NCBI GenBank assembly: GCA_021783235.1
Contig: JAJXUD010000012.1
Location: forward strand, 16,503-80,502
Direction of reading: 5' to 3'
Length of the DNA: 64,000 bases
Source: Myxococcales bacterium
Lineage (GTDB): Bacteria; Myxococcota; Myxococcia; Myxococcales; JAKAPL01
Every line of letters begins with the position of its first letter. Position 1 is the first letter of the stretch. This document shows, in pieces, positions 4,873 through 49,762 of the stretch. Both the position numbers and the translations under genes were made by a program. Below the pieces are notes generated by a model. The model made no database searches. It was not told where the DNA came from and saw only the letters and a list, made by a program, of their open reading frames with translations.

Positions 4873-5310
4873 ATGGCCGGCCTCATCGTGGACGACGTCA
4901 TGACCCGTCACCCGCGGACGATGTCCTCCGCCGCGACCATCCTCGCCGCCTACGAGGCGATGTCCTCCGGGAACTTCCGCCACCTGCCCGTCCTCGACGG
5001 CAAGCGGTCCATCGGCATCGTCTCCGATCGCGACATCCTGCGCCACATGCCGCCGCTCTCGCACGAGCCCAGGGACCGCGCCGCCCATGGCCAGTTCCTC
5101 CAGCGGCCCATCGCCGAGATCATGACCCAGAACCCGCTCACCGTGCTCGAGGGCTCGCCGCTCGAGGTCGTCGTCGAGCTGATGCTCGTCAACCAGGTGA
5201 GCGCCGTCCTCGTCGAGGACCAGGCCGCGACCCTGCGCGGCATCGTCACCACGGTGGACGTCGCCTCCGCGCTCCTGCGGCTCCTGCGCGGCGAGATCAG
5301 CCAGCGGTAG
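4873..5310 (+). CDS. CBS domain pair protein
   Basis: Two CBS-like motifs (VMTRHPRTM...HLPVLDG...GIVSDRDILR and IMTQNPLTV...VSAVLVED...GIVTTVDV). Confidence 0.75.
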   Translation: MAGLIVDDVMTRHPRTMSSAATILAAYEAMSSGNFRHLPVLDGKRSIGIVSDRDILRHMPPLSHEPRDRAAHGQFLQRPIAEIMTQNPLTVLEGSPLEVVVELMLVNQVSAVLVEDQAATLRGIVTTVDVASALLRLLRGEISQR

Positions 5311-5378
5311 CGCCGCGGCGCCGGAGCGGCGGCGTGAACCGCCAGGCGGGGGGAGGTCGCGCGACGGGCCGGACGAGC

Positions 5379-5975
5379 CTATGCGGCGCCAGCGGACGAG
5401 CCGGCCGTCGCCGGCGCCGGCGGATCGACGCGCAGACCCTTCGCGAAGTTTCCCCAGAAGCGGCTGTACTCCAGAATCACGTCGCAGCCCGAGGGGGGAA
5501 CCGCGACGTCCCAGCCGCGCCGCCGCCTCATGCTGCCAAACACGATCGCCGACTCGAGGCGGTGCTGCCCCGGCGCCACCGGAACGGTCACGTCGATTCC
5601 CGCCTTGAAGCCGCCGTCGTGGATGGCGGCGCCGTCGAGCAGCAGCAGCACCCGGACGTCGCCCAAGAAGAACCGTGGGGCGGGAAACGAGACGTGGATC
5701 TCGCCGCCGCCCGCTCTGCCCGCCGGAGAAGAGGCCCGATCGATGCTCGGGCTCGTCTGAACCGCGAGGCCGCGCGGCACGCCCAGAAAGAACAGCACGC
5801 CGCCGCCGAGGAGGAGAATCGTGCTTCACTGCCCCGGGAACCAGAGGCCGCTCAGCATGAGGCCGCATCCCGAGAGCAGGGCGCCATCCTTCCAGAGAGG
5901 CGCCTTCCTCTTGATGCTCAGGTAGACGGCGAACATCGTGGCGGCCGGCAACGCCACCGCGTGGAACCAGCTCAT
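5379..5975 (-). pseudogene. Putative 3-TM membrane protein reading frame interrupted by an in-frame TGA at 5826-5828. It may instead be two separate small genes.
   Basis: ATG at 5975 is preceded by AGAGGAGAGG. A 49-codon hydrophobic ORF ends at a TGA. The same frame then continues directly into the track ORF 5379-5798, whose N-terminus (STILLLGGGVLFFLGV) reads like a third TM segment. Confidence 0.35.
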
Positions 5976-6014
5976 CGGCCTCTCCTCTGACGGGCTGCCC
6001 GCCGAAGAAGAAGC

Positions 6015-6497
6015 CTACTCAAGCCGTGCCGGTGGCCGCAACCGGCCAAGCCCCCTCCGTCCTTGGGCCTCCGGCCTGTCTCGCGACGACTCGCGCGACT
6101 CCAGCGTCGGGAGGCGCCCTCCGCACGCGGAGTCGTCCTCCCGGCATGCGGAGTCGACCTCCGCGCACGCGGACTCGTCCTCCCCGCACGCGGACTCGTC
6201 CTCCCCGCACGCGGAGTCGTGCTCCCCGCATGCGGAGTCGACCTCCCCGCACGTGGAGTCGACCTCCCCGCATGCGGAGTCGACCTCCGCGCACGCGGAC
6301 TCGTGCTCCGCGCATGCGGACTCGCTCTCCCCGCACGCGGAGTCGTCCTCCCCGCATGCGGACTCGTGCTCCGCGCACGCGGAGTCGTCCTCCCCGCACG
6401 CGGACTCGACCTCCGCGCATGCGGACTCGTGCTCCGCGCGCGCGGGAACGGAGAAAAGCGGGCGGCCGATGTCAGGGAGCTCGGTCTCCTGGCCCAT
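6015..6497 (-). CDS. Candidate small acidic Cys-repeat protein (15 heptads of E-x-[DE]-S-A-C-[AG])
   Basis: ATG at 6497 begins MGQETELPDIGRPLFS, which is shared with the ORF at 13297-13569. Fifteen heptads follow. This frame terminates sensibly at 6015, whereas the plus-strand frame runs on antisense through sqr. No obvious Shine-Dalgarno sequence. Confidence 0.4.
   Translation of the reverse strand: MGQETELPDIGRPLFSVPARAEHESACAEVESACGEDDSACAEHESACGEDDSACGESESACAEHESACAEVDSACGEVDSTCGEVDSACGEHDSACGEDESACGEDESACAEVDSACREDDSACGGRLPTLESRESSRDRPEAQGRRGLGRLRPPARLE
6123..6437. repeat. Tandem repeat of 15 units of 21 bp (consensus gcaCgcggaGtcgtcctcccc), head to tail with no spacers
   Basis: Units were counted directly in the sequence. 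Several units contain the near-palindrome GCGGAGTCGACCTCCGC. The 21-bp period preserves the reading frame. Confidence 0.95.
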
Positions 6498-6634
6498 ATA
6501 CGGGAGTAGAGAGCAAGAGAAGCGAGCGGGCGCTCTCGTGGGCTTCGGGCGGTCGATGGTCGACCGGCCGGGGATCCACGGGTCCCGCGGCGCGGAGAGG
6601 AAGCGCGAGCGACCGCTCCAGACCGCGGGGTGCC
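6451..6634. repeat. Conserved ~185-bp block, copy 1 (pairs with 13523-13707)
   Basis: By-eye alignment to copy 2 shows about 15 substitutions and one 1-nt indel, with runs of 44, 26 and 22 identical nt. Both copies are in the same orientation. Confidence 0.9.
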
Positions 6635-6646
6635 GATTGGGGCCCA

Positions 6647-6667
6647 CCGCCGCCCGCGGTGCGGCGG
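6647..6667 (-). terminator. GC-rich hairpin 5 nt downstream of the sqr stop; possible intrinsic terminator without a U-tract
   Basis: CCGCCGC-ccgcggt-GCGGCGG, a 7-bp stem. There is no T-run, so this call is weak. Confidence 0.3.
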
Positions 6668-6672
6668 CCTCT

Positions 6673-7824
6673 TCAAAACCAGCGACGCAGCCAGTCCTTC
6701 TCGAAGAGCACCTTCCCCGCGTGCCACCGCCTCGCGGGTGGATGCAGCTTCACCGCGGGCAGCGGCTCGGCGTAGAAGTTTCCCTTGCCGAACCCCGCCT
6801 TGCCGTCGCCCGTCTCGACGAAGCATTCGCCCTCGCCGTCGAAGGTCGCACCCTTGCCCTTGCCGAGGATCGCCCGGGCGATGTTCGCCGCGACCACGTT
6901 CGCCTCGGCGTGGGCGAAGACCCCGGCCTTGGGCAGAGGCTTCCCCAGCTTCAGCGGGATCGAGACCGCGTCGCCGATCGCGTAGACCCCCGGGAATCGC
7001 GTCTCGAACGTCGCCCGATCGGCGGAAACCCAGCCGCTCTCCCCGCAGAGCCCCGCTTCTCGAACGACCTTGGGCGCCCGGTGGGGTGGGACGTAGGCGA
7101 GCAGGTCGTAGCCCGCCTCGGCCCCATTGGCGAAGCGAAGCTTCCGCGCGGCCGGATCGACGCTCTGGACACGATGCTCGGGGTGATAGGTGATTCCCTT
7201 GGCTTCGACCATGCCGCGCACGCCCTGGGAGACCTCGGGACCCGCCACTCCCATGGGACCCGGCTCGGCGGCGTAGAGATCGATCTTCGTCTGCTCGCGT
7301 ATCTTGCGCTTGCGGCAGTACCCCTCGACCAGCATCGCCGCCTCATAGGGCGCGGCGGGACATCTGTAGACGGGCTCCGCCGTCAGCAGAGCGATTCGAC
7401 CGCCCGAGAAGCGCTCGAGGGCCCCGTAGAGCGATCCGGCTCCGGCGAGCGTGTAGAAGTCGTGCCCCGCCTCCGAAAGCCCGGGCACGGAGGCCGCGTC
7501 GAGGTCCGCTCCCAGGGAGACGACCAGGAAGTCGCCGGCGATTGTCGTTCCGTCTACGATGACCTCTCGCCTGTCGGGCTCGATCTTCCGTATCTCGCCG
7601 CGCTTGAACTCGATCCCCTTGCGGCTCAGCCGGTCCAGCGGACGGGAGATCTTCTCGGGCGTCCGCTCGCCGACCATGAGCCAGAGGAGAGAGGGGGCGA
7701 AGAGGAAGGAAGCTTCCCGTTCGACGAGGACGACGCGGTGCTCCTTCGGCAGCTTCTTCCGAAGCGCATTGGCGGCGACGAGACCTCCGACGCCACCTCC
7801 CAGAACCAAGACGGTGCTCGCCAT
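6673..7824 (-). CDS. sqr: Sulfide:quinone oxidoreductase-like FAD-dependent pyridine nucleotide-disulfide oxidoreductase
   Basis: N-terminal Rossmann motif VLVLGGGVGGLVAA. Contains a YRCPAAPYE motif and an AIGD motif near the C-terminal third. GGAGAG lies upstream of the ATG. Confidence 0.8.
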   Translation of the reverse strand: MASTVLVLGGGVGGLVAANALRKKLPKEHRVVLVEREASFLFAPSLLWLMVGERTPEKISRPLDRLSRKGIEFKRGEIRKIEPDRREVIVDGTTIAGDFLVVSLGADLDAASVPGLSEAGHDFYTLAGAGSLYGALERFSGGRIALLTAEPVYRCPAAPYEAAMLVEGYCRKRKIREQTKIDLYAAEPGPMGVAGPEVSQGVRGMVEAKGITYHPEHRVQSVDPAARKLRFANGAEAGYDLLAYVPPHRAPKVVREAGLCGESGWVSADRATFETRFPGVYAIGDAVSIPLKLGKPLPKAGVFAHAEANVVAANIARAILGKGKGATFDGEGECFVETGDGKAGFGKGNFYAEPLPAVKLHPPARRWHAGKVLFEKDWLRRWF

Positions 7825-7832
7825 GTGCTCTC

Positions 7833-8336
7833 CTACTTTTCGACGGGAAGACCCTTGACCGCCCAGTCGGTCTGGAAGTTGTGGGGCAGGTCCAGCACCT
7901 TCACGTGGGTAAAGCCGAGCCTCTCCAGTTCGTGCAAGGCTGGACGGACGTTCGGGCAGCGCTCCCAGGGGCAGCAGCCGCAATAGATGACGATGGGTGC
8001 CTCGTGGGGCAATCCCTGCACCGCCTTCTGGAGAGCCGCCAGCCCTTCCGGCGCCGACGCCATCCCGACGTAACGGGCTCCCGGGACGTGGTTTCGGGTG
8101 AAGATGGCCTCGGGTCCGACGTGGAGGACCAGCGGCTTCGCTCCGGCGTCGCTGCCGAGCGTGCGAACCAGCTCCTCGGGCTCGATGACTTTGTCGGGAG
8201 GAGGGTCGGAAGCCAACGGAGCGGTCGGCGCAGCCTGCGCCGCGCTCTCGGGCGGAGTCGGTTTCGCGCACGCTGGCGCCACACCGACGTACGACGCGGC
8301 GATCAGAGCAAGAGAGGCGAGACGAACGCGATTCAT
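7833..8336 (-). CDS. Secreted rhodanese-like sulfurtransferase domain protein
   Basis: Signal peptide MNRVRLASLALIAASYVGVAPACA. Rhodanese-like fold with the active-site loop IVIYCGCCPWERCPN. The start could instead be 8348. Confidence 0.7.
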   Translation of the reverse strand: MNRVRLASLALIAASYVGVAPACAKPTPPESAAQAAPTAPLASDPPPDKVIEPEELVRTLGSDAGAKPLVLHVGPEAIFTRNHVPGARYVGMASAPEGLAALQKAVQGLPHEAPIVIYCGCCPWERCPNVRPALHELERLGFTHVKVLDLPHNFQTDWAVKGLPVEK

Positions 8337-13296: not shown

Positions 13297-13569
13297 CTAA
13301 GGTTCAAGAGGAGATCGAAGGAGAGCTGGTGGCTGCCCCTGCCACCGACGGCTTTGATTCCGGCCTCGACCTCCATCCAGCATGCACGGGACGAGTTCGA
13401 CCCCGATGGACGCCGCCCCGCCAGCCGAAGAGGCTCCCATCGAGGGAACCCAGTCGACTGAAGGCCCGACTGCCCCGAACGGCAACGAGGCCTCCTTCTC
13501 CGACTCGCTCTCCGCGCGGTCAGAGAAAAGCGGGCGGCCGATGTCAGGAAGCTCGGCGCCCTGGCCCAT
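13297..13569 (-). CDS. Candidate small protein sharing its N-terminal 16 residues with the ORF at 6015-6497
   Basis: Begins MGQGAELPDIGRPLFS. Two nucleotide differences from copy 1 within these codons are synonymous (CTC/CTT, TCC/TCT). The remainder is unrelated apart from a degenerate AESESE remnant. Confidence 0.35.
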   Translation of the reverse strand: MGQGAELPDIGRPLFSDRAESESEKEASLPFGAVGPSVDWVPSMGASSAGGAASIGVELVPCMLDGGRGRNQSRRWQGQPPALLRSPLEP

Positions 13570-13707
13570 ATGCGGGAGTAGAGAGCAAGAGAAGCGAGCG
13601 GGCGCTCTCGTGGGCTCCGGGTGGTCGATGGTCGGCCGGCCGGGGATCCACGGGTCCCGTGGCCTCGGTGGGGAAGCGCAAGCGACCGATCCGGACCGCG
13701 GGGTGCC
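13523..13707. repeat. Conserved ~185-bp block, copy 2 (pairs with 6451-6634)
   Basis: See copy 1. Similarity extends about 25 nt further left (13499-13522) into one degenerate 21-bp unit (cgactcgctctccgcgcg). Confidence 0.9.
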
Positions 13708-13769: not shown

Positions 13770-14468
13770 ATGGCCGATCCCCAATCGACCAGAAAGGTAA
13801 ACGTGATGGTCAACAACAACAGCAGCATCCCCGGCGGCAGCATCGCCGGGGCCGCCGGCAGCGGCAGCAACGCGGCCGGCAGCGGAAGCCAGAGCACGCC
13901 GCCGTCGGGAGCGATCCCGGCGACCGTCATGCCGAAGTACGGCTTCCGCGACGAGGTCACGACGCTGGTGGACGCCATCGAGAAGAAGATTCCCGGTGGC
14001 CCCACCTTCGTGGTGGCCGGCCAGTCGATCACCAAGCAGGGCATCGAGGATCTCCTGAACGGGATCCTCGCGCTCTTCGAGGACGTCGACTCCGGCGCCC
14101 AGGCGCTGAAGCAGAAGCGTCTGGCCCTCGAGGCTGCGCTGCCCGGGGCTCACCAGTTCGTGGTGAACCTCAAGGCGGTTCTCGTCGGGCTCTTCGGCAA
14201 GGGCAACCCTGTCCTCGAGTCCTTCGGGATCGCGCCGAAGCCTCGCAAGCTCACGACCGAGCAGAAGCTCGCTCGGAAGGAGAAGGCGAAGCTGACGCGC
14301 GAGCAGCGCGGGACCGGTGGCAAGCGCCAGTTGGCGCTGAAGAAGTTCACCGGTCAGATCGTGGTCCAGACGGCGGTCGCGCCGTCCGGTACCCCGATCG
14401 AGGGGCTCGCGCCCCCCGCCGCCGGTGGCGACACCGGCGCTTCGTCCAGCACGCCCTCGCAGAAGTAG
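13770..14468 (+). CDS. Hypothetical protein with a Gly/Ser/Asn-rich N-terminus and a Lys/Arg-rich C-terminal half
   Basis: Clean ORF followed by a strong intrinsic terminator. An alternative start at 13803/13806 is preceded by AGAAAGG. No family was recognised. Confidence 0.6.
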   Translation: MADPQSTRKVNVMVNNNSSIPGGSIAGAAGSGSNAAGSGSQSTPPSGAIPATVMPKYGFRDEVTTLVDAIEKKIPGGPTFVVAGQSITKQGIEDLLNGILALFEDVDSGAQALKQKRLALEAALPGAHQFVVNLKAVLVGLFGKGNPVLESFGIAPKPRKLTTEQKLARKEKAKLTREQRGTGGKRQLALKKFTGQIVVQTAVAPSGTPIEGLAPPAAGGDTGASSSTPSQK

Positions 14469-14690: not shown

Positions 14691-17600
14691 ATGCAGCCGC
14701 CTCGCTCGCTCCGCGCGCTCATCGCGCAGGGGCTCGTCGCGCTGTCGCTCGCCGCCTGCCACCGCGGCGCGGGCGGCGCGCCGCCGCCGGTGACGGCGAC
14801 TCCCGCGACGCCGGCGAGCGCGGCCCCCGCCGAGAGCAAGCCGCCGCCAAGGCTCGCGGCCAGCGACGTGCAGCCCATCCTGAGCCCGCAGGGGAACGAC
14901 GGCGCGATCCCCGACCGGCTCGTCATCGAGCTCGCGCTGCCGGTGCTGGCCGACGGCTCCTTCCCGCGCCCCGCCTCGGCGAAGACGCGGCTCTCGTTCG
15001 AGCCGAGGGTCGAGGGGGAGCTCTCCTTCACGAGCCCGTCCACGCTGACCTTCACGCCTCGGCTCGGCTTCGCGCCGCGGCAGCGCTACCGGGCGACGCT
15101 CGAGCAGCTCGAGACCGACGCCGGGCCGCTGGCGGCGCCGGAGCCGGCGGGCTGGTCGACCACGTTCGAGACCCCGGCGTTCGGCTTCTCGCGGCTCGAT
15201 CTCGACGGGATCGACCTCGGCAAGCGGCGGATCGCGGTCAAGCTGCTCTTCACGGGGCCGCTCGAGGCCTCGCAGCTCCGGGGGCGCGCCTCGCTCCTGC
15301 TCGACGGCGTGCCGCCCTCGCACGTGGCGTTCGCCTCGACCCTCGATCCTCACGCGGTCCGCGCGCTGCTCGATCCGGCCTCCCTGCCGCCCGTCGGGAA
15401 GATCTCGCTGGCGCTGCGCGCGGGGGTGCGGCTGCGGGGCGGCCACGCCGAGGCCGAGGCGGCGGAGGCGAGCGTCGACTACTCGAGCGGCAAGCCGATC
15501 GACGTCAAGCTCGTGCAGCGGGGGGAGTCGCCGAGCGGCCACTACCTCGACGTGGTCTGCGACGATTCCGCGGCGGGCGGCGAGCGCTACTACTGGCAGC
15601 CGGACGCGGAGCAGTCGTTCCAGCTCTCGAAGCGCTGCCTGCCCACGGACGACAGCGCGCAGGAGCGGATCCACTTCACGCCGCCGGTGAAGTTCTCGAT
15701 CGCCCCGTCGGGGGGCGGTTTCCGCATCCTCGGAAGCTTCAAGCGCGGCAGCTACGCGATGCGCATCGACGCGGGCCTCGCCTCGGCCGACGGCGGAGTG
15801 CTCCTCGGCACGGTCGAGAAGTCGTTCTCCTTCCCGGCCCGCAAGCCGCAGCTCTCGTTCCTCTCGCAGGGGCGCTACCTGCCGCGCGCGGCCTGGAAGA
15901 GCCTGCCGGTGAGCCACCTCAACGTCGAGGAGGCGAAGCTCCAGATCCGGCAGGTGCCCCCCGAGGATCTGGTCTTCTGGGCGAGCGACGCCCAGAGCGA
16001 GAAGGCCACCGAGCGCGACAGCAACCTCCTGCTCGAAAAGACGGTCGCGCTCGGGCGCGCCGCGCCGGACGAGCCGACGACGAGCTGGATCGATCTCGCC
16101 TCGATGCTTCCCGCGAAGACGCGGGGGCTGCTCGAGATCCGCCTCTCGGCGGGCGGCGCGCAGGACGCGGTGGCGAGGATCGTCCTCACCGACCTGAACC
16201 TCGTGGCGAAGCGGGCCTCGGCCGCTCGGGCCCAGGACCAGTCGGTGCTCGTCTGGGCGCTCGACGCGTCGAGCGGCGAGCCGCTGTCGGGCGTCGACGT
16301 GAAGGCCGTGCGCATGAGCGGCAAGACGGTCGGCGAGTGCGAGACGCGCGGCGACGACGGCTGCCTCATGGCGCCCGCCCAGGACGACGCCGACCCCGCG
16401 CCGGCCTTCGCGCTGATCGCGCGCAAGGGGGACGACCTCACCTACCTCAAGTTCGCCGATCTCGAGACCGGCATCGACGACGCCGAGGTGGGTGGCGCGC
16501 CCTACCAGGGCGACCAGCCCTACCGCGCCGCGATTTACGGCGACCGGGGCGTCTACCGGCCCGGCGACGTCGCGCACCTCGTGGCGATCCTCCGCGACCG
16601 CGGCGACGTCGCCCCGCAGGAGCCCGTCCCGCTGGTCCTGCGGCTGACCGACCCCCGCGCGCGGACGATCCAGAGGCTCGTCGTCGAGACCAACCCGGCG
16701 GGGCTCGCGAAGCTCGACTGGCGCATCCCCGTCTTCGCCGACACGGGGAGCTACACGCTCACCGCGCTCGTCGCCGACAAGCCCGTGGGCACGCTCGCCT
16801 TCCACGTCGAGGAGTTCGTCCCCGAGCGGATGAAGGTCGTCGCGACCGCCGAGCAGAAGGATCTGCTCACGGGCGAGGCCGCCAAGGTGAAGGTCGCCGC
16901 GAAGTACCTCTTCGGCTCCACGCCCGAGGGGGCCAAGGTCGAGCTCGGCTGCAAGGTCGAGCCGGCGGCCTTTCACCCGACCCAGAACGCGAACCTCACC
17001 TATGGCGTCTGGCACCGGGGCGGCAAGGAGCCGAAGCCCATCGACCTCGGCAGCGCGGACGGGACGCTCGATTCGAAGGGGGAGGCGGAGCTCGCCTGCC
17101 CCGGCCAGGGCGGCCTCGCGGAGTCGGCGCGCGTCGTCGCCACCGCCGCGGTCTTCGAGTCCGGCAGCGGCCGGACGAGCCAGGCGGTCGCGACCGTGCC
17201 GCTCCACCCGGAGCGCTTCTACCTCGGCCTCTCGACCGGCGTGACCAGCGGCGCGGCGGGCAAGGCCATCCCCGTCTCGGGGAAGGTGGTCGACTGGAAC
17301 GGCGCCCGGATGAACGCCCTCACCAGCGTGGAGCTACGGCTCGTGCGGCTCGAAGAGGACTACGACTGGAGTTGGAACGCGGACGACGGGAACCAGGGGC
17401 TCCGGCGCTACCTCCGGCCGATCGTCGAAGGGAAGGAGACCGTCCCGGTGAAGGACGGGAGGTTCGAGGCGACGCTGACCCCGCAGGAGGACGCCGAGTC
17501 GTTCCTCGTCGAGGCGCGCGCCGGCAAGGCGCGCACGGATCTCGAGATCAAGGGGAACGGCCGCTGGTGGTGGGCGCCAGGCGAGAGCCAGGCGGAGCAG

Positions 17601-23270: not shown

Positions 23271-24908
<1,638 letters not shown>

Positions 24909-27242: not shown

Positions 27243-28715
27243 ATGAACGCCTTGTTCGCCCGCAAGACCATCGCGCAGCTCCAGTCGGAGGCGGACGAGC
27301 AGGAGCACGGCCTGCGCCGGGCGCTCTCGGCCTTCAACCTGATGACGCTCGGGATCGGCGCCATCATCGGCGCTGGCATCTTCGTCTTGACGGGGGTGGC
27401 CGCGGCTCAGTACGCGGGCCCGGCGGTGGTGCTCTCCTTCATGCTGGGCGGAGTCGCCTGCGCCTTCGCCGGCCTCTGCTACGCCGAGATGGCGTCCACG
27501 GTGCCCATCGCCGGCAGCGCGTACACCTACTCCTACGCCACCATGGGCGAGCTCTTCGCCTGGATCATCGGCTGGGACCTCTGCCTCGAGTACGCCTTCG
27601 GCGCCACCACGGTGGCAATCGGCTGGTCCGGCTACGTGGTCAGCTTCCTCAAGAGCCTCGGGCTCGCCCTGCCCCAGGCGCTGACCCACGCGCCGGCCGA
27701 GGGGGGACTCCTGAACCTCCCGGCCGCCCTCATCGTCCTCGCCGTCACCGCGCTCCTCGTCGTGGGGGTCAAGGAGTCGGCCAACGTGACCTCGGCCATC
27801 GTGGTCGTGAAGGTGCTCGTCGTCCTCGCCTTCCTCGCCGCCTGCGCCCCCTTCATCCACGCCTCCAACTGGCATCCCTTCGTGCCGCGGAACAGCGGGG
27901 CGTTCGGCCACTACGGCTGGTCTGGGATCCTGCGGGGCGCCGGGGTGGTCTTCTTCGCCTACATCGGCTTCGACGCCGTCTCCACGGCGGCGCAGGAGGC
28001 GAAGAACCCGCAGCGGGACATGCCGATCGGCATCCTCGGGAGCCTCGTCGTCTGCACGCTGCTCTACATCGCGGTCGCGCTCGTCATCACTGGCATCGTG
28101 AGCTACACCACGCTGAACGTGCCCGATCCCATCGCGGTCGGCGTCGACGCGGTGGGCCTCACGTGGCTCGCGCCGATCATCAAGATCGGCGCCATCCTGG
28201 GGCTGACCTCGGTGATCCTGGTCATGCTGATGGGCCAGCCGCGCATCTTCTTCTCCATGGCGAACGACGGCCTCCTGCCGCCCGGGGCCGCCAAGATCCA
28301 TCCGCGCTTCCGCACGCCGTACGTGACGACGATGATCACGGGCGCGGTGGTCGCGGTGGCGGCGGCGCTCCTGCCCATCGGCGTCGTGGGCGAGCTCGTC
28401 AGCATCGGCACGCTCCTCGCCTTTGCACTCGTCTGCGCCGGCGTCCCCGTGCTCCGGCTGCTCGACCCGGACGCCAAGCGACCGTTCCGCACGCCCGCCG
28501 TCTGGCTGGTGGCGCCGCTCGGCGTGGCCTCGTCGCTGGCGCTCATGGCCGGGCTGCCGCTCGACACCTGGCTCCGGCTCGTCGTCTGGATGGCGATCGG
28601 CCTCGCCATCTACTTCTTCTACGGCCGCAAGCACAGCAAACTGCGGCTGGCCCGGCCGCCCAACGCGTCGAACGGTCCGCCGGAGACGGCGCGGGGTGTC
28701 GGAGGGATGAAGTAA
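27243..28715 (+). CDS. APC-superfamily amino acid permease (cationic amino acid transporter-like)
   Basis: [28 protein letters not shown] motif. Polytopic. Paralog of 23271-24908. Confidence 0.85.
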
Positions 28716-38758: not shown

Positions 38759-40118
38759 GGGCGCTCCCCTCGAGCGGATGCTCCTTGAGCTCCGCGATCG
38801 AGATGGCGGGCAACAGCTTCACGACGATGAGAAGCCACATGAAGAACCAGCCGAACGAGCCGATGGTGATGCCGATCTCATAGAGGCTCGGCAGGTAGTT
38901 GGCCCAGCTCGCCGGGTCCTGGTCGTGCGCGGTCGAGGTCACGACGATGTTGAACCGCTCGAACCACATCCCCACGTTCACGAGGAGCGAGACGACGAGC
39001 AGGGCCGCACGGTTCGATCGCACCCGCTTCGAGAAGAGGGAGAGCGGAATGATGCAGTTGCATGCGACCATGGTCCAGAAGACCGGGGCGTAGAAACCGG
39101 TTGCCCGGAAGAGGAAGGTCGACCGCTCCGCGGGAGAGCCGCCGTAGAAGACCATCAAGTACTCGGTGGCGTACGAATAGAAGACGATGAGCGAGGTGAA
39201 GAGAACCACCTTCGCGAGCATGTCGAGGTGATGCGGGGTGATGAGGTCCTCGAGCCCGAGCGCCTTGCGCAGCGGGATGAGGAGCGTGATCACCATCGCG
39301 ACCCCGGAGAAGATCGCTCCGGCGACGAAGTAGGGCGCAAAGAGCGTCGAGTGCCAACCCGGGACGATGCCCATGGCAAAGTCCCAGGAGACGACGCTGT
39401 GCACCGAGATGACGAGCGGGGTCGCGAGCGCCGCGAAGAAGAGGTAACCGCGCGCGTAGCCGCGCCACTCGCCGTCGCCGTTCTTCCAGCCGAGCGCGAG
39501 CAGGCCGTAGATCTTCGAGCGCCACCCGTCGACCCGATCGCGCAGCGAGGCCAGGTCGGGGATCATTCCGATGAAGAGGAACACCGCGCTGACCGTGAAG
39601 TAGGTCGAGACCGCGAAGACGTCCCAGAGCAGCGGCGACTTGAAGTTGACCCAGAGGTGCCGGTGGTTCGGGTAGGGGAAAAGCCAGTAGGCGAACCACG
39701 GTCGGCCGACGTGGAGAATCGGGAAGAGGCCAGCGGTCATGACACCGATGACGGTCATCATCTCCGCCGCGCGGTAGACGGCCGTTCGGAAGCGGGCCCG
39801 GAAGAGGAAAAGGACCGCCGAGATGAGCGTGCCCGAGTGGGCGATGCCGACCCAGAAGACGAAGTTCGTGATGTAGACGCCCCAGCCCACGGGGGAATGG
39901 AGCCCGGTCACGATCATGCCGCGCTCGATCTGCTGGGCCCAGCACCAGCCCCCGACCGCCGCCGCGGCGGCCGACAGCAGGATCAGCCCAAAATGAAGCG
40001 CCTTCGGGAAGCCGAGGCTCCGAATGACCGGCGGGGTGATGTCGGGGATCTGCTCGAGCGCTCCGCCGTGGGTTTCGGGCAGAAGCCGAACGCTTTCGAC
40101 CTGAGTGCTCACGCTCAT
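38748..40118 (-). CDS. actC: ACIII subunit ActC (NrfD-like, cluster 2)
   Basis: WGVYITNFVFWVGIAHSGTLISAVLFLFRARFR segment. ATGA overlap with the actB2 stop. Confidence 0.9.
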   Translation of the reverse strand: MSVSTQVESVRLLPETHGGALEQIPDITPPVIRSLGFPKALHFGLILLSAAAAAVGGWCWAQQIERGMIVTGLHSPVGWGVYITNFVFWVGIAHSGTLISAVLFLFRARFRTAVYRAAEMMTVIGVMTAGLFPILHVGRPWFAYWLFPYPNHRHLWVNFKSPLLWDVFAVSTYFTVSAVFLFIGMIPDLASLRDRVDGWRSKIYGLLALGWKNGDGEWRGYARGYLFFAALATPLVISVHSVVSWDFAMGIVPGWHSTLFAPYFVAGAIFSGVAMVITLLIPLRKALGLEDLITPHHLDMLAKVVLFTSLIVFYSYATEYLMVFYGGSPAERSTFLFRATGFYAPVFWTMVACNCIIPLSLFSKRVRSNRAALLVVSLLVNVGMWFERFNIVVTSTAHDQDPASWANYLPSLYEIGITIGSFGWFFMWLLIVVKLLPAISIAELKEHPLEGSAHAH

Positions 40119-47455: not shown

Positions 47456-49762
47456 ATGCTCGCTGCCGCGATGCCCCGCCTCCTCGCCGTCGCCACCCTC
47501 GCCGCCGCGCTCGTCGCCTCGCCGGCCCGGGCCGGCTGGAGCTGGCTCTCCCCCACGCCCACCGGCTACCCGATCGAGGGCGCGGCGTTCCCCACCGCCT
47601 CGAGGGGCTACCTGGTCGGTGGCGCCGGGACGATCCTCGCCTCGACCGACGGGGGCGCTCGTTGGACGCTCGAGTCGGCGCCGAGCAGCGCCGACCTGTA
47701 TGGCGTCTTCTTCCTCCCCGACGGCGCGACGGGGTGGGCGGTGGGAGGGAACGGGACGATCCTTCACACGACGGACGGAGTGCACTGGAGCGCGCAGACC
47801 TCGCCGACCGCTCAGAAGCTTTACGCCGTGGCCTTCGTGGACGCCCTCCACGGCTTCGTCGCGGGCGACCAGCGGACGCTCCTCCAGACGGCAGACGGCG
47901 GCCAGAGCTGGACCCTGCGCGACGGCCAGATCCTCACTCTGAATGCCCTCGTCTTCGCCGACGCGCTCCACGGCTTCGCGGCGGGCTGGGGCGGAACCGT
48001 GCTGCTCACGCTCGATGGCGGCCAGAGTTGGAGCCCGATCGAGACGCCGACGACCGAGGATCTGCTCGCCCTCTCGTTCGCCGACGCCTCCCACGGCTGG
48101 GCGGTCGGCGCCGGCGGAGCAATCGTCGCGACAACGGACGGCGGCCGGAGCTGGCACGCGCAGGCGGCCGGCCTCACCTCGCAAGATCTGGTCGGAGTCT
48201 TCGCGGCCACCTCCGGCGTGGCGTACGCGGTCGGCAACGGCGGCAGCTTCTGGTTCACGACCGACGGCTCGACGTGGCAGGCGGGCGGCTGGGCCGACGC
48301 GGGAGAGGTCCTCACCGGGCTCGCCGCCTCTCCCACGGGCGCGCTCGTCGCGCTCGGGGCGGACGGCCACATCTACTCGGCGCCGCCGACGACGGCGCCA
48401 GGCAGCCAGATCTTCTCTGACGAGAACCAGGGCTTCTCGCGCTACGAATCAGTGACCGGGATCGCCTTCGCGGACGCGCTCCACGGCGTCCTCGTGGCGG
48501 GCGGCGTCCTCTATTACACGCAGGACGGCGGCGCCCACCTTCAGCCGGGCAGCATCCCCCCCTCCAGCCAGCCGAGCCGACCGTTCGTCGCCTGGCAGGC
48601 GGTCAGCATGCCGGCCCCGAGCGCGGTCTTCGCGGTGGGCACGGGCGGCGGCATCGCCGTCAGCCACGACGTCGGCCAGAGCTGGAGCTGGCTCTCCGAC
48701 CAGGGCGGGTTCCCCGAGGCCGACCTCTTCGCGGTCGCCTTCGCCGACGGGCAGGTCGGCTACGCTGCGGGCGAGCAGGGGATGGTGCTCTCGACCCGCG
48801 ACGGCGGGGGCAGCTGGAGCCCCGAGCCGACGCCAGCCGCCGGTACGCTGCACGCGCTCCTCGTCCTCTCGCCGAACGAGGCGGTCGCGGTCGGAGACTA
48901 CGGCGAGATCGTCGGGACGACCGACGGGCGAAGCTGGTCGCTCGCCGCGATCCCTCCCGGCTCGCAGGCGCTGCGCGGCATCTCGGGGAGACCGCCGGGC
49001 CACATCTACGCCGTCGGCGACCGCGGCGCGACGCTCGTCTCACTCGACCAGGGGCAGACCTGGTACGCCCAGCCGAGCATCGCCGACGCGGACCTCGGGC
49101 CGATCGTGATGCTCGATCGGCTGAACGGCTTTCTCGCCACCTCCCATCCCGGACAGATCCTCGTAACGAGAGACGGGGCGCAGAGCTGGCAGCCTCAGAT
49201 CGGCGCGCTGCCGCCGCTCGCGGCGCTCGCCTTCGTGGATCCGCAGCACGGCTTCGCGGGCGGCGTCGGCGGCTCGCTCCTCGGAACCGACACGGGCGGC
49301 GAGGCGAGCTGCGTCTCGAGCGCCGACTGCGCCGACGCCGGCGCCGAAAATGGGCTCGGCTACGCCTGCGTGCGGGGCGCCTGCGCGCCCTGCAACCTCG
49401 ACTCGCAGTGCACGGCGGCCTGCTCCGCCTGCGGCGCGCCCACGCCCTACTGCCTCGGGGGCTTCTGCGGCCAGTGCCTCCTCGACTCCGACTGCGCCGA
49501 CGGCGGCAGCTGCATCTCGGGCGGCTGCGTCGTCAATTCGCCGCTGCCGGACGCGGGGCTGCCCTTCGCGGACGGCGGATTCACGGGCTTCGACGCCGGG
49601 TTCGTCGTGGTGCTCCCCGACGGCGGCGTGCGGCTCAACCCCCAGGCGCTCTGCTGCGGCTGCCGCCCCGGCGGGGACGGAAGCTCGCCGCTCGGCCCGC
49701 TGATCCTGGGGGGCTTCCTCTTCGTGTCGCTTTTTCTCCACCGCCGCCGCGCGGGGCGGTAG
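47456..49762 (+). CDS. Secreted BNR/Asp-box (Ycf48-like) double beta-propeller protein with a Cys-rich module and a MYXO-CTERM-type sorting tail
   Basis: Signal peptide. About 12 Asp-box repeats (S/T-x-D-G-G-x-S/T-W). A Cys-rich stretch. A C-terminal CCGCRPGG…LILGGFLFVSLFLHRRRAGR tail. An alternative start lies at 47471. Confidence 0.8.
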   Translation: MLAAAMPRLLAVATLAAALVASPARAGWSWLSPTPTGYPIEGAAFPTASRGYLVGGAGTILASTDGGARWTLESAPSSADLYGVFFLPDGATGWAVGGNGTILHTTDGVHWSAQTSPTAQKLYAVAFVDALHGFVAGDQRTLLQTADGGQSWTLRDGQILTLNALVFADALHGFAAGWGGTVLLTLDGGQSWSPIETPTTEDLLALSFADASHGWAVGAGGAIVATTDGGRSWHAQAAGLTSQDLVGVFAATSGVAYAVGNGGSFWFTTDGSTWQAGGWADAGEVLTGLAASPTGALVALGADGHIYSAPPTTAPGSQIFSDENQGFSRYESVTGIAFADALHGVLVAGGVLYYTQDGGAHLQPGSIPPSSQPSRPFVAWQAVSMPAPSAVFAVGTGGGIAVSHDVGQSWSWLSDQGGFPEADLFAVAFADGQVGYAAGEQGMVLSTRDGGGSWSPEPTPAAGTLHALLVLSPNEAVAVGDYGEIVGTTDGRSWSLAAIPPGSQALRGISGRPPGHIYAVGDRGATLVSLDQGQTWYAQPSIADADLGPIVMLDRLNGFLATSHPGQILVTRDGAQSWQPQIGALPPLAALAFVDPQHGFAGGVGGSLLGTDTGGEASCVSSADCADAGAENGLGYACVRGACAPCNLDSQCTAACSACGAPTPYCLGGFCGQCLLDSDCADGGSCISGGCVVNSPLPDAGLPFADGGFTGFDAGFVVVLPDGGVRLNPQALCCGCRPGGDGSSPLGPLILGGFLFVSLFLHRRRAGR

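Follow-up and report, generated by a model that had tools for sequence, protein, structure and literature searches.

A hypervariable 21-bp hairpin array beside a sulfide-oxidation cluster in an uncultured Myxococcales lineage: a probable minisatellite with a probably fortuitous Cys-heptad reading frame

The array T1 and the reading frame that crosses it

The 64,000-nucleotide stretch analysed here (hereafter the window) comprises positions 16,503 to 80,502 of the contig JAJXUD010000012.1 from the Myxococcales bacterium assembly GCA_021783235.1, and contains, just downstream of a sulfide-oxidation cluster, an array of 21-bp tandem units (T1) traversed by an open reading frame (ORF) of 160 codons. 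The cluster finishes with sqr (6673–7824, minus strand), whose 383-aa product is a sulfide:quinone oxidoreductase (SQR)-like flavoprotein with the Pfam domains Pyr_redox_2 and FCSD_central. The stop codon of that gene is followed at 6636–6672 (minus) by a G+C-rich hairpin—lacking a U-tract, recognised from sequence and fold, and missed by the terminator scan—and then by the first copy (6441–6634) of a conserved element (CE) of ~195 nt, 91% identical to 13513–13707, which element separates the hairpin from T1. On the other side of the array lie the 35-codon tail of the ORF with its TAG (6015–6122, minus) and a downstream gene (5379–5975, minus) for a 198-aa protein with two transmembrane segments, which gene has a strong Shine-Dalgarno (SD) sequence and intact 198-aa homologues (P0002–P0006).

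Tandem Repeats Finder reported T1 with a period of 21, 15.5 copies, 84% matches and a score of 419 over 6121–6445; and cutting the minus strand from 6437 downward yields 15 exact head-to-tail 21-nt units at 6123–6437, the same number and limits that the initial annotation had given. The unit consensus, G[CG]GGAG-NNCGA-[CG]TCCGC-[AG]TGC, makes every unit an inverted repeat of the layout GCGGAG-N5-CTCCGC-N4, with the arms GCGGAG and CTCCGC and loops of 5 and 4 nt, and the hairpin-forming character previously ascribed to the units is therewith confirmed. The motif TCCGCRTGCGS occurs 13 times in the window, always within T1, against an expectation of 0.98. In the minus frame the units read AEHESAC AEVESAC GEDDSAC and so on to REDDSAC, following the pattern [AG]E-x-[ED]-S-A-C. 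Because an identical 160-aa product was called on 12 contigs from several samples, T1 is no one-off assembly artefact.

The ORF, for its part, runs on the minus strand from an ATG at 6497–6495 to a TAG at 6017–6015, begins with MGQETELPDIGRPLFSVPAR, continues through the Cys heptads, and ends in a basic tail of 35 residues; its start lies 176 nt past the sqr stop (6673), co-directional with sqr and beyond the hairpin, and the initial description was borne out in all its points. The ATG and the first 20 codons (6438–6497) fall, by translation, inside CE copy 1. The openness of this frame is nevertheless uninformative, since all six frames are free of stop codons across T1; moreover, 34.5% of all the 160-codon windows in this 70% G+C, 64-kb sequence are stop-free. 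The opposite frame, with HAESSSP heptads, was likewise found to be open from 5938 to 7986, as had been noted; we rejected plus-strand coding on the grounds that this frame meets no stop before 7986 and passes antisense through sqr, though composition cannot separate the two strands.

The signals for translation were poor, in agreement with the earlier remark that no SD sequence precedes the ORF. The 25 nt 5' of the ATG (CTTCTCTTGCTCTCTACTCCCGTAT) are pyrimidine-rich, with almost no purines, and the duplex energy with the anti-SD sequence, at +0.5 kcal/mol, was the worst among the 21 called genes; 19 of the 20 others gave −3.3 to −15.2 kcal/mol and one gave −0.5 (18 of the 20 lying between −4 and −15), with values of −7.3 for sqr and −9.0 kcal/mol for the downstream membrane-protein gene. 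A scan of 5300–6900 revealed no sigma-70-like promoter, the scan being weak for high-G+C organisms.

Turnover of the array and provenance of its flanks

The sequences available for comparison were short-read metagenome assemblies and metagenome-assembled genomes (MAGs) of an uncultured high-G+C lineage. One of them, L012 (MAG GCA_027417995.1), shares 98.9% identity with the window across 14.5 kb; and whereas most of the flanking genes differ between the two by 0.2–0.6%, mostly at third positions, T1 differs by 10.2%, so that the divergence of the array between close strains is ~25 times that of its flanks. These differences are distributed 8/12/11 over the three codon positions. The array of L012 also has 15 units, of which the first five and the last are those of the window and the middle ones are reshuffled; its unit 14, of 22 nt (GGGGAGCACGACTCCCCGTGGC), introduces a +1 frameshift that extends through the last unit and the whole tail. 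In L004 (MAG GCA_027417905.1), 99.7–99.8% identical to the window, T1 consists of 9 units corresponding to the window array minus units 9–14, with one Ser→Tyr change, and at a second locus, of the L001 type, it consists of 8 units. Tandem units, strain polymorphism and a change faster than that of the flanks, which are the marks of a minisatellite or variable-number tandem repeat (VNTR), were thus all found in T1. The initial annotation had named homologous loci with the repeat but a broken minus frame as grounds for refuting the coding reading, and a synonymous bias in the changes as support for it; the frame is broken in L012 by 1 nt and the ATG deleted in L001, and the variation was unbiased among strains (8/12/11) as well as among units (see below). 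The gains and losses in steps of 21 bp cannot, for their part, serve to test the frame, since multiples of 21 preserve every frame.

The same region is difficult to assemble. Several Logan contigs end 115–157 nt after sqr, inside CE copy 1 and up to ~120 nt short of T1, and independent assemblies break at either the CE or T1 (position 1 of L001 and of L021–L024, position 1 of L025, and the ends of L005–L008), which shared break points indicate co-existing strain variants or repeats at the junction. Since both L012 and L026, which are alternative versions of the region, occur in the MAG GCA_027417995.1, that MAG is probably a strain mixture.

A second array of the same lineage, T2, unrelated in sequence to T1 and formed by the 21-bp unit CCCGARGTYGCGGGAGCYCTT, encodes (PEVAGAL)n and provided an internal control for codon periodicity. 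T2 is located at 133–375 of L026 (11.6 units), 336–809 of L027 (22.6 units) and 5082–5333 of L028 (minus, 12.2 units). The unit-to-unit heterozygosity of T2 by codon phase was 0.24/0.41/1.77 in L026 and L027 and 0/0/1.51 in L028, and nearly all the units encode PEVAGAL despite several synonymous differences. Since this variation is almost purely synonymous, and since T2 in L028 is in frame after a lipoprotein ORF, T2 is, as judged from those sequences, a heptad domain translated at present or until very recently, and the phase test can accordingly detect coding where such a domain occurs. T1 fails the test that T2 passes: its heterozygosity by phase was 0.73/1.09/1.03, with positions 2, 7, 8, 12 and 18 of the unit being variable. 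The two unrelated arrays share a period of exactly 21 bp, for which period heptad coding accounts in T2 only.

We made three further observations on T2. The wobble positions 15 and 21, corresponding to the rare codons GGA and CTT, never vary. In L028 the array starts 18 nt past the TGA of, and in frame with, the ORF of a 199-aa Cys-rich lipoprotein (5352–5951, minus), which ORF was missed by the gene caller; this layout may be due to read-through of the stop codon, to a nonsense mutation of recent date or to a repeat domain at the C-terminus. In L026 and L027, a deletion of ~0.7 kb abuts T2 to the CE, and a shared second unit of 22 nt breaks the frame from the CE ATG.

The ATG of the 160-codon ORF was found to belong to the CE. 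The stretch running from 6634 down to 6441, which holds that ATG and the first 16 codons, recurs from 13707 down to 13513; there, CE copy 2 (13513–13707) together with a spacer of ~85 nt (to ~13790) constitutes the upstream region of a divergent operon encoding a 220-aa protein, A2M and PbpC. The longer version of the element, copy 2 plus spacer, is common to L001, L025, L026, L027 and L028. The ATG and the 16 codons recur at 13569 and in L026–L028, followed in those instances by unrelated sequence. Thus, the CE continues into the T1 Cys-heptad array at copy 1 of the window, in L012 and in L004; into a single degenerate T1-like unit (GCGGAGAGCGAGTCG; 13490–13512, minus, directly adjacent in the alignment) and then unrelated sequence of low G+C at third positions (GC3), with a non-repeat 90-codon ORF, at copy 2; into a 35-codon ORF and then the lipoprotein gene in L028; and into the wholly different array T2 in L026 and L027. 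At the L001-type locus—represented by five contigs, three samples and one MAG—a deletion of ~70 nt between short direct repeats has removed the ATG and ~15 codons, leaving the 8 units and the tail. The degenerate unit beside copy 2 may be either a proto-unit of T1 or the relic of an array.

These arrangements are most simply explained if the CE represents what lies upstream of the operon headed by the 220-aa gene, copy 1 being its partial duplicate and the ATG accidental. All the copies come from one narrow clade and their polymorphism forms a mosaic, from which pattern the similarity appears to reflect recent common descent and recombination, and not deep constraint. Other roles for the CE were rejected. 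A tRNA, tmRNA or known RNA serving as integration target was not favoured by ARAGORN, which detected no tRNA or tmRNA; by Rfam 15, which gave no match in the whole window and only chance-level matches (E of 1.7 or weaker) in 5900–6750; or by the fold of the element, whose z values of −1.0 and −1.7 are not notable. An extension of the 220-aa coding sequence was discarded in view of the G+C by codon position (0.69/0.77/0.69) and a 1-nt indel between the copies. Finally, the finding that in L026 and L027 the junction is occupied by another 21-bp array, whose phase matches that of the ATG, had raised the idea of a protein family with a shared leader (MGQE.ELPDIGR.LFS) and swappable heptad arrays; the L028 ORF starting at that ATG, however, ends after 35 codons, T2 in L028 lies in frame behind the lipoprotein ORF 0.7 kb away, and L026 and L027 are deletion derivatives.

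The tail of the ORF seems no more gene-like than its start. Between the window and L001 the tail differs at 22 of 108 nt, with 5/10/7 by codon position and a ratio of nonsynonymous to synonymous change (pN/pS) of 0.91, and its G+C by codon position (0.80/0.69/0.77) is not that of a gene. The last ~70 nt align with the conserved region 5' of the homologous membrane-protein gene in L013–L015, distant relatives (65–68% protein identity) having no CE, repeats or sqr nearby, and we conclude therefrom that the end of the ORF falls within the next gene's leader. One homologue of this gene comes from a MAG labelled 'Deltaproteobacteria bacterium'. In the window itself, a frame check showed, an in-frame TGA (5828–5826) replaces Trp50 of the 198-aa protein, leaving pieces of 49 and 139 aa; L012 and more distant relatives have the intact gene, and in L001 it is heavily eroded. 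The eroded copy and the one carrying the nonsense codon constitute decay in the neighbourhood of T1.

We consequently regard T1 as probably a lineage-specific, hypervariable, hairpin-driven minisatellite in a strain-variable, rearrangement-prone zone between sqr and the membrane-protein gene, and the 160-codon ORF as most likely fortuitous. Under this reading, a 21-bp unit without stop triplets would stay open indefinitely in its frame—here in six frames—while the ATG would derive from the ~195 nt duplicated from upstream of the 220-aa/A2M/PbpC operon, the reading frame would close at whichever stop codon came first within the next gene's 5' region, and the resulting product would have no protein function.

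Several observations weigh against such an interpretation. Read in the ATG frame, T1 has a G+C of 0.70/0.58/0.94 at the three codon positions, which resembles that of the genes in the window (~0.68/0.50/0.88). Nevertheless, the minus AEHESAC and the plus HAESSSP frames share their third codon positions, the plus frame scoring equally there, so that a GC3 of 0.94 cannot separate the strands; and as evidence for coding a gene-like GC3 at seven wobble positions per unit is weak. Furthermore, the ORF figures among the gene calls of the ENA assemblies; and it is open in all four alleles of the array, although two of these differ in its start or end. Residues E2, S5, A6 and C7 are almost invariant in the 38 + 8 units of the two loci, and the unit consensus is unchanged between those loci, whose tails differ by 20%, which constancy hints at some constraint on the unit. 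The +1 insertion of L012 and the copy numbers, for their part, could hold assembly errors. Finally, with T2 a coding heptad array is present in the same variable zone, and coding 21-bp arrays therefore do occur in this lineage.

With respect to known classes of repeats, T1 resembles the bacterial minisatellites or VNTRs—of which the mycobacterial interspersed repetitive units are an example—in having head-to-tail units, polymorphism of copy number and order, fast change, a location in or next to intergenic DNA, and a tendency to break short-read assemblies. T1 differs from other VNTRs in that the unit is itself an inverted repeat and the array self-complementary, in being contained in an ORF called by a gene finder, and in its restriction to one narrow uncultured lineage. 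Repeat loci of 10–100 bp are used for multiple-locus VNTR analysis in the high-G+C genus Xanthomonas (PMC4045669). T1 would make a good strain marker for the present lineage. The ORF, in turn, is comparable to the spurious repeat-derived ORFs collected in AntiFam (PMC3308159): it is a stop-free repeat ORF in a high-G+C genome, with no ribosome-binding site (RBS), no true homologues, and matches only to the translations of repeats. Unlike the members of that class, however, the ORF is covered by no existing model and has an unusually gene-like G+C by codon phase, in view of which it may be a proto-gene or a relic. The case is a caution that a stop-free 21-bp repeat in a 70% G+C genome can mimic a Cys-rich heptad protein of 160 codons, which some gene finders will call, and that the codon periodicity of the variation among units offers a simple internal control, separating as it does the coding (PEVAGAL)n from T1.

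A protein, a relic or a nucleic-acid element

If, as one alternative, the ORF were a real gene, its product would be a small cytoplasmic protein with a short N-terminus and 15 acidic heptads, placing one Cys per two turns on the same face of a helix; we consider this unlikely. In its favour are the coding-like G+C phase in the ATG frame, the invariance of Cys, Ser and Glu throughout the 46 units of the two loci, the calls made by the gene finder on the 12 contigs, and a single-sequence AlphaFold2 model with three long helices, in which the block-mean pLDDT was 69–89 over residues 21–100 and lower beyond, for an overall value of 66.9 (low confidence). Against it stand the missing SD sequence; the ATG, which precedes unrelated continuations elsewhere and is deleted in L001; the frameshift in L012; the pN/pS of the tail; a variation without codon periodicity, unlike that of the T2 control; and an mRNA that would form a hairpin of −205 kcal/mol.

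The searches for relatives bear on the same question. A word-index search among 5.8 billion proteins retrieved a single cluster, P0001, which is the L001-type ORF from the same samples, and a further word-index search (P0178) was dominated by low-complexity words and gave nothing useful. The initial annotation had suggested a hidden-Markov-model search for E-x-[DE]-S-A-C-[AG] repeats; HMMER, applied to 1.84 billion representatives, produced 439 matches, all of which were unrelated translations of heptad or 21-bp repeats (IDNESAC, HVDSACM, GEVELLC), with no real homologue among them. The product had no match in Pfam or NCBIfam; the PDB yielded by phmmer only heptad adhesins, at E values of 5.7e-4 or weaker, and by Foldseek, with the model as query, nothing below E 3.5. 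At the nucleotide level, a CE 20-mer had only 2 chance actinobacterial matches in the GTDB genomes, a CE 21-mer had only 5 chance matches in a collection scan, the pattern of two consecutive T1 units had 0 matches in the JGI metagenomes, and blastn found no match in the plasmid and phage collections. Literature and accession searches returned nothing specific to the array.

The context of sulfur and copper genes is a further point for a real protein, since a Cys-heptad protein could buffer or carry the sulfane sulfur, polysulfide or soft metals (Cu(I), for instance) that the neighbouring SQR, rhodanese, DsrE and cupredoxin produce or handle; we hold that function, too, to be unlikely. Only if the ORF were translated would its product resemble the Cys-lined copper-storage proteins Csp1 and Csp3 and the bacterial metallothioneins (reviewed in PMC7558416), in being helical, with the Cys aligned on one face and a copper–sulfur context. 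The Csps, however, are non-repetitive four-helix bundles with conserved families, whereas the ORF has no family, no SD sequence, no stable frame, and no similarity in sequence or fold to Csp, to metallothionein or to any solved structure. A bolder version would have the ORF translated independently of an SD sequence on its pyrimidine-rich leader into a young proto-protein—an acidic helical rod or bundle with 15 Cys, putatively a buffer for polysulfide, persulfide or Cu(I)—whose length the minisatellite would tune, thereby varying the thiol capacity with the copy number; this we regard as distinctly improbable. Were the protein reading true, the ORF would encode a novel type of thiol-ladder protein and illustrate how a repeat can give rise to a gene de novo. 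The location beside sulfur and copper genes invites such a functional story, which the comparative data do not support: the linkage with sqr is not conserved, T1 being away from sqr in L001 and both the array and sqr being absent in L013–L015, while the homologues form one cluster from a narrow clade. The thiol-rich carrier initially conceived as linked to SQR, rhodanese, DsrE and the copper genes thus finds no backing, in view also of the missing RBS, the unstable start, the L012 frameshift, the neutral tail and the lack of periodicity.

The repeat-type precursor peptide, also put forward at the outset, fared no better. In the repeat-core precursors of ribosomally synthesized and post-translationally modified peptides (RiPPs), a short conserved N-terminus is followed by near-identical short Cys-containing units, and the ORF is similar in that its N-terminus precedes Cys units. 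The Pfam annotations of the neighbouring genes, however, included no radical SAM, YcaO, Lan, peptidase or ABC gene, so that a maturase, protease or transporter is lacking nearby; and the putative leader, derived from a duplicated promoter region, precedes unrelated continuations.

Alternatively, T1 could be the decaying remnant of a heptad domain that formerly was coding, the 5' part of the gene having disappeared in a deletion or recombination event that joined the array to the CE, by analogy with T2 in L026 and L027; we judge this to be quite unlikely. The coding-like G+C phase of T1 and the pseudogenisation of the neighbouring gene in the window and in L001 are consistent with such a history, for which the T2 of L028, in frame after the lipoprotein ORF, and the ~0.7-kb deletion of L026 and L027 furnish a precedent. 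The protein and metagenome searches, though, retrieved no donor gene carrying AEHESAC-like repeats; the degenerate unit beside CE copy 2 fits an expansion in situ at least as well; and the palindromic design of the unit points to an origin at the DNA level.

That design is evident in the folding energies. The minus-strand RNA of T1 was predicted to fold with −204.6 kcal/mol (z of −8.0 versus shuffled sequences), the plus-strand RNA with −162.9 kcal/mol (z of −4.7), and the minus-strand single-stranded DNA with a z of −6.7, the arms being able to pair within their own unit or with the next one; the RNA of the diverged L001 array gave a z of −3.5, and that of T2, −1.2 and +0.8. A G:G mismatch occupies stem position 2 in half of the T1 units, and the closing pair in half, with no compensatory change. 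Could T1 then be a functional nucleic-acid element—either an RNA stem-loop acting as terminator, insulator or 3'-end stabiliser of the sqr operon, in the manner of the repetitive extragenic palindromic (REP) sequences and bacterial interspersed mosaic elements (BIMEs), or else a set of phased protein-binding or cruciform sites in the DNA? We assign that possibility a low probability. The extreme and strand-asymmetric folding potential, strongest on the sqr strand and kept in the diverged L001 array, would fit such an element, as would the position of T1 between two co-directional transcription units and the greater conservation of the stem arms compared with most loop positions; and 21 bp, amounting to two helical turns, would suit phased sites. 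Nonetheless, apart from the uncompensated mismatches, sqr is already followed by a hairpin of its own, 30 nt upstream of the CE, L004 shows that the copy number can drop by about half without apparent effect, the array has no rep, par or regulator gene specifically linked to it, and the other array type of the same zone, T2, is unstructured.

REP sequences occur in hundreds of dispersed copies, clustered in alternating orientation. T1 is like the REPs and BIMEs in that its G+C-rich stem-loops follow an operon and could serve in transcript stabilisation or termination, and unlike them in being a direct head-to-tail array at one locus, with no other copy in the 64 kb or the related loci: the motif was not found outside homologous arrays, and there is neither a dispersed REP-like family nor an operator shared with the promoters of the cluster. 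By the same absence of the motif from the rest of the window we rejected T1 as a set of operator sites for the ArsR-rhodanese regulators. A clustered regularly interspaced short palindromic repeat (CRISPR) array is likewise not indicated, the units abutting without spacers and the Rfam CRISPR matches falling far below threshold; nor is an iteron- or centromere-like array, there being no Rep or Par domain among the neighbours, in a context that is chromosomal.

Since the mismatches are uncompensated and the motif occurs nowhere else, the hairpins are taken as a cause of instability and not as proof of function. On the minisatellite reading, the hairpins likely cause slippage and unequal exchange, and the turnover of T1 would accordingly be driven by hairpin-promoted replication slippage and unequal recombination. 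If T1 were transcribed, the RNA of ~−200 kcal/mol would impede ribosomes and might, as a side effect, block read-through from sqr into the next gene. The non-coding structured repeat, which the initial annotation had listed as its third option, is the one that we favour, with the frame broken in L012 and the ATG deleted in L001.

The sulfide-oxidation neighbourhood and other features of the window

The two CE copies are direct repeats 7,072 bp apart and bracket the whole sulfide-oxidation cluster, which comprises two ArsR-rhodanese genes and those for a 339-aa protein, DsrE, a cupredoxin, a cytochrome c, a rhodanese and SQR; a CBS protein and an ACIII-like complex are also encoded by neighbouring genes. 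At the L001-type locus, a CE resembling copy 2 (96% identical) is joined directly to T1 and to the membrane-protein gene in its eroded form, sulfide genes being absent, while in L028 quite different genes occupy the position of the cluster and the content differs also in L001, L026 and L027. This arrangement suggests that the sulfide-oxidation cluster constitutes a cassette, which recombination between the CE repeats has inserted or can excise, possibly through a Campbell-type event within the element. Because T1 occurs without sulfide genes in L001, and other genes fill that position in L028, the adjacency of T1 and sqr is not a conserved functional linkage and would instead follow from the placement of a cassette within a variable zone.

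The 220-aa gene (13806–14468, plus), which heads the A2M/PbpC operon and has no family match, is also variable, with a divergence of 4.55% between the window and L012, a flat distribution over codon positions (13/8/9) and, among strains, a mosaic of two haplotypes; right past its start codon there is a length polymorphism of (AAC)3 versus (AAC)5, the (AAC)n tract lying at 13812–13820.

Elsewhere in the window, 38781–39959 is a 77%-identical paralogue of the gene for an NrfD/ActC-like membrane subunit at ~1448–2785, which suggests that the window encodes a second ACIII-like or polysulfide-reductase-like complex. The segments 23391–24326 and 27318–28109, ~3.8 kb apart, are paralogous at 77–79% identity and probably constitute duplicated amino-acid permease genes, AA_permease domains being present at the equivalent place in L025 and L026. 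Finally, 47825–49272 contains six copies of a motif of ~50 nt (GCC.TCGCCTTCGC.GACGC.CTCCACGGCTTCG) at spacings of 120–490 nt, which copies likely belong to a repeat-domain protein whose motif reads roughly FADALHGF.

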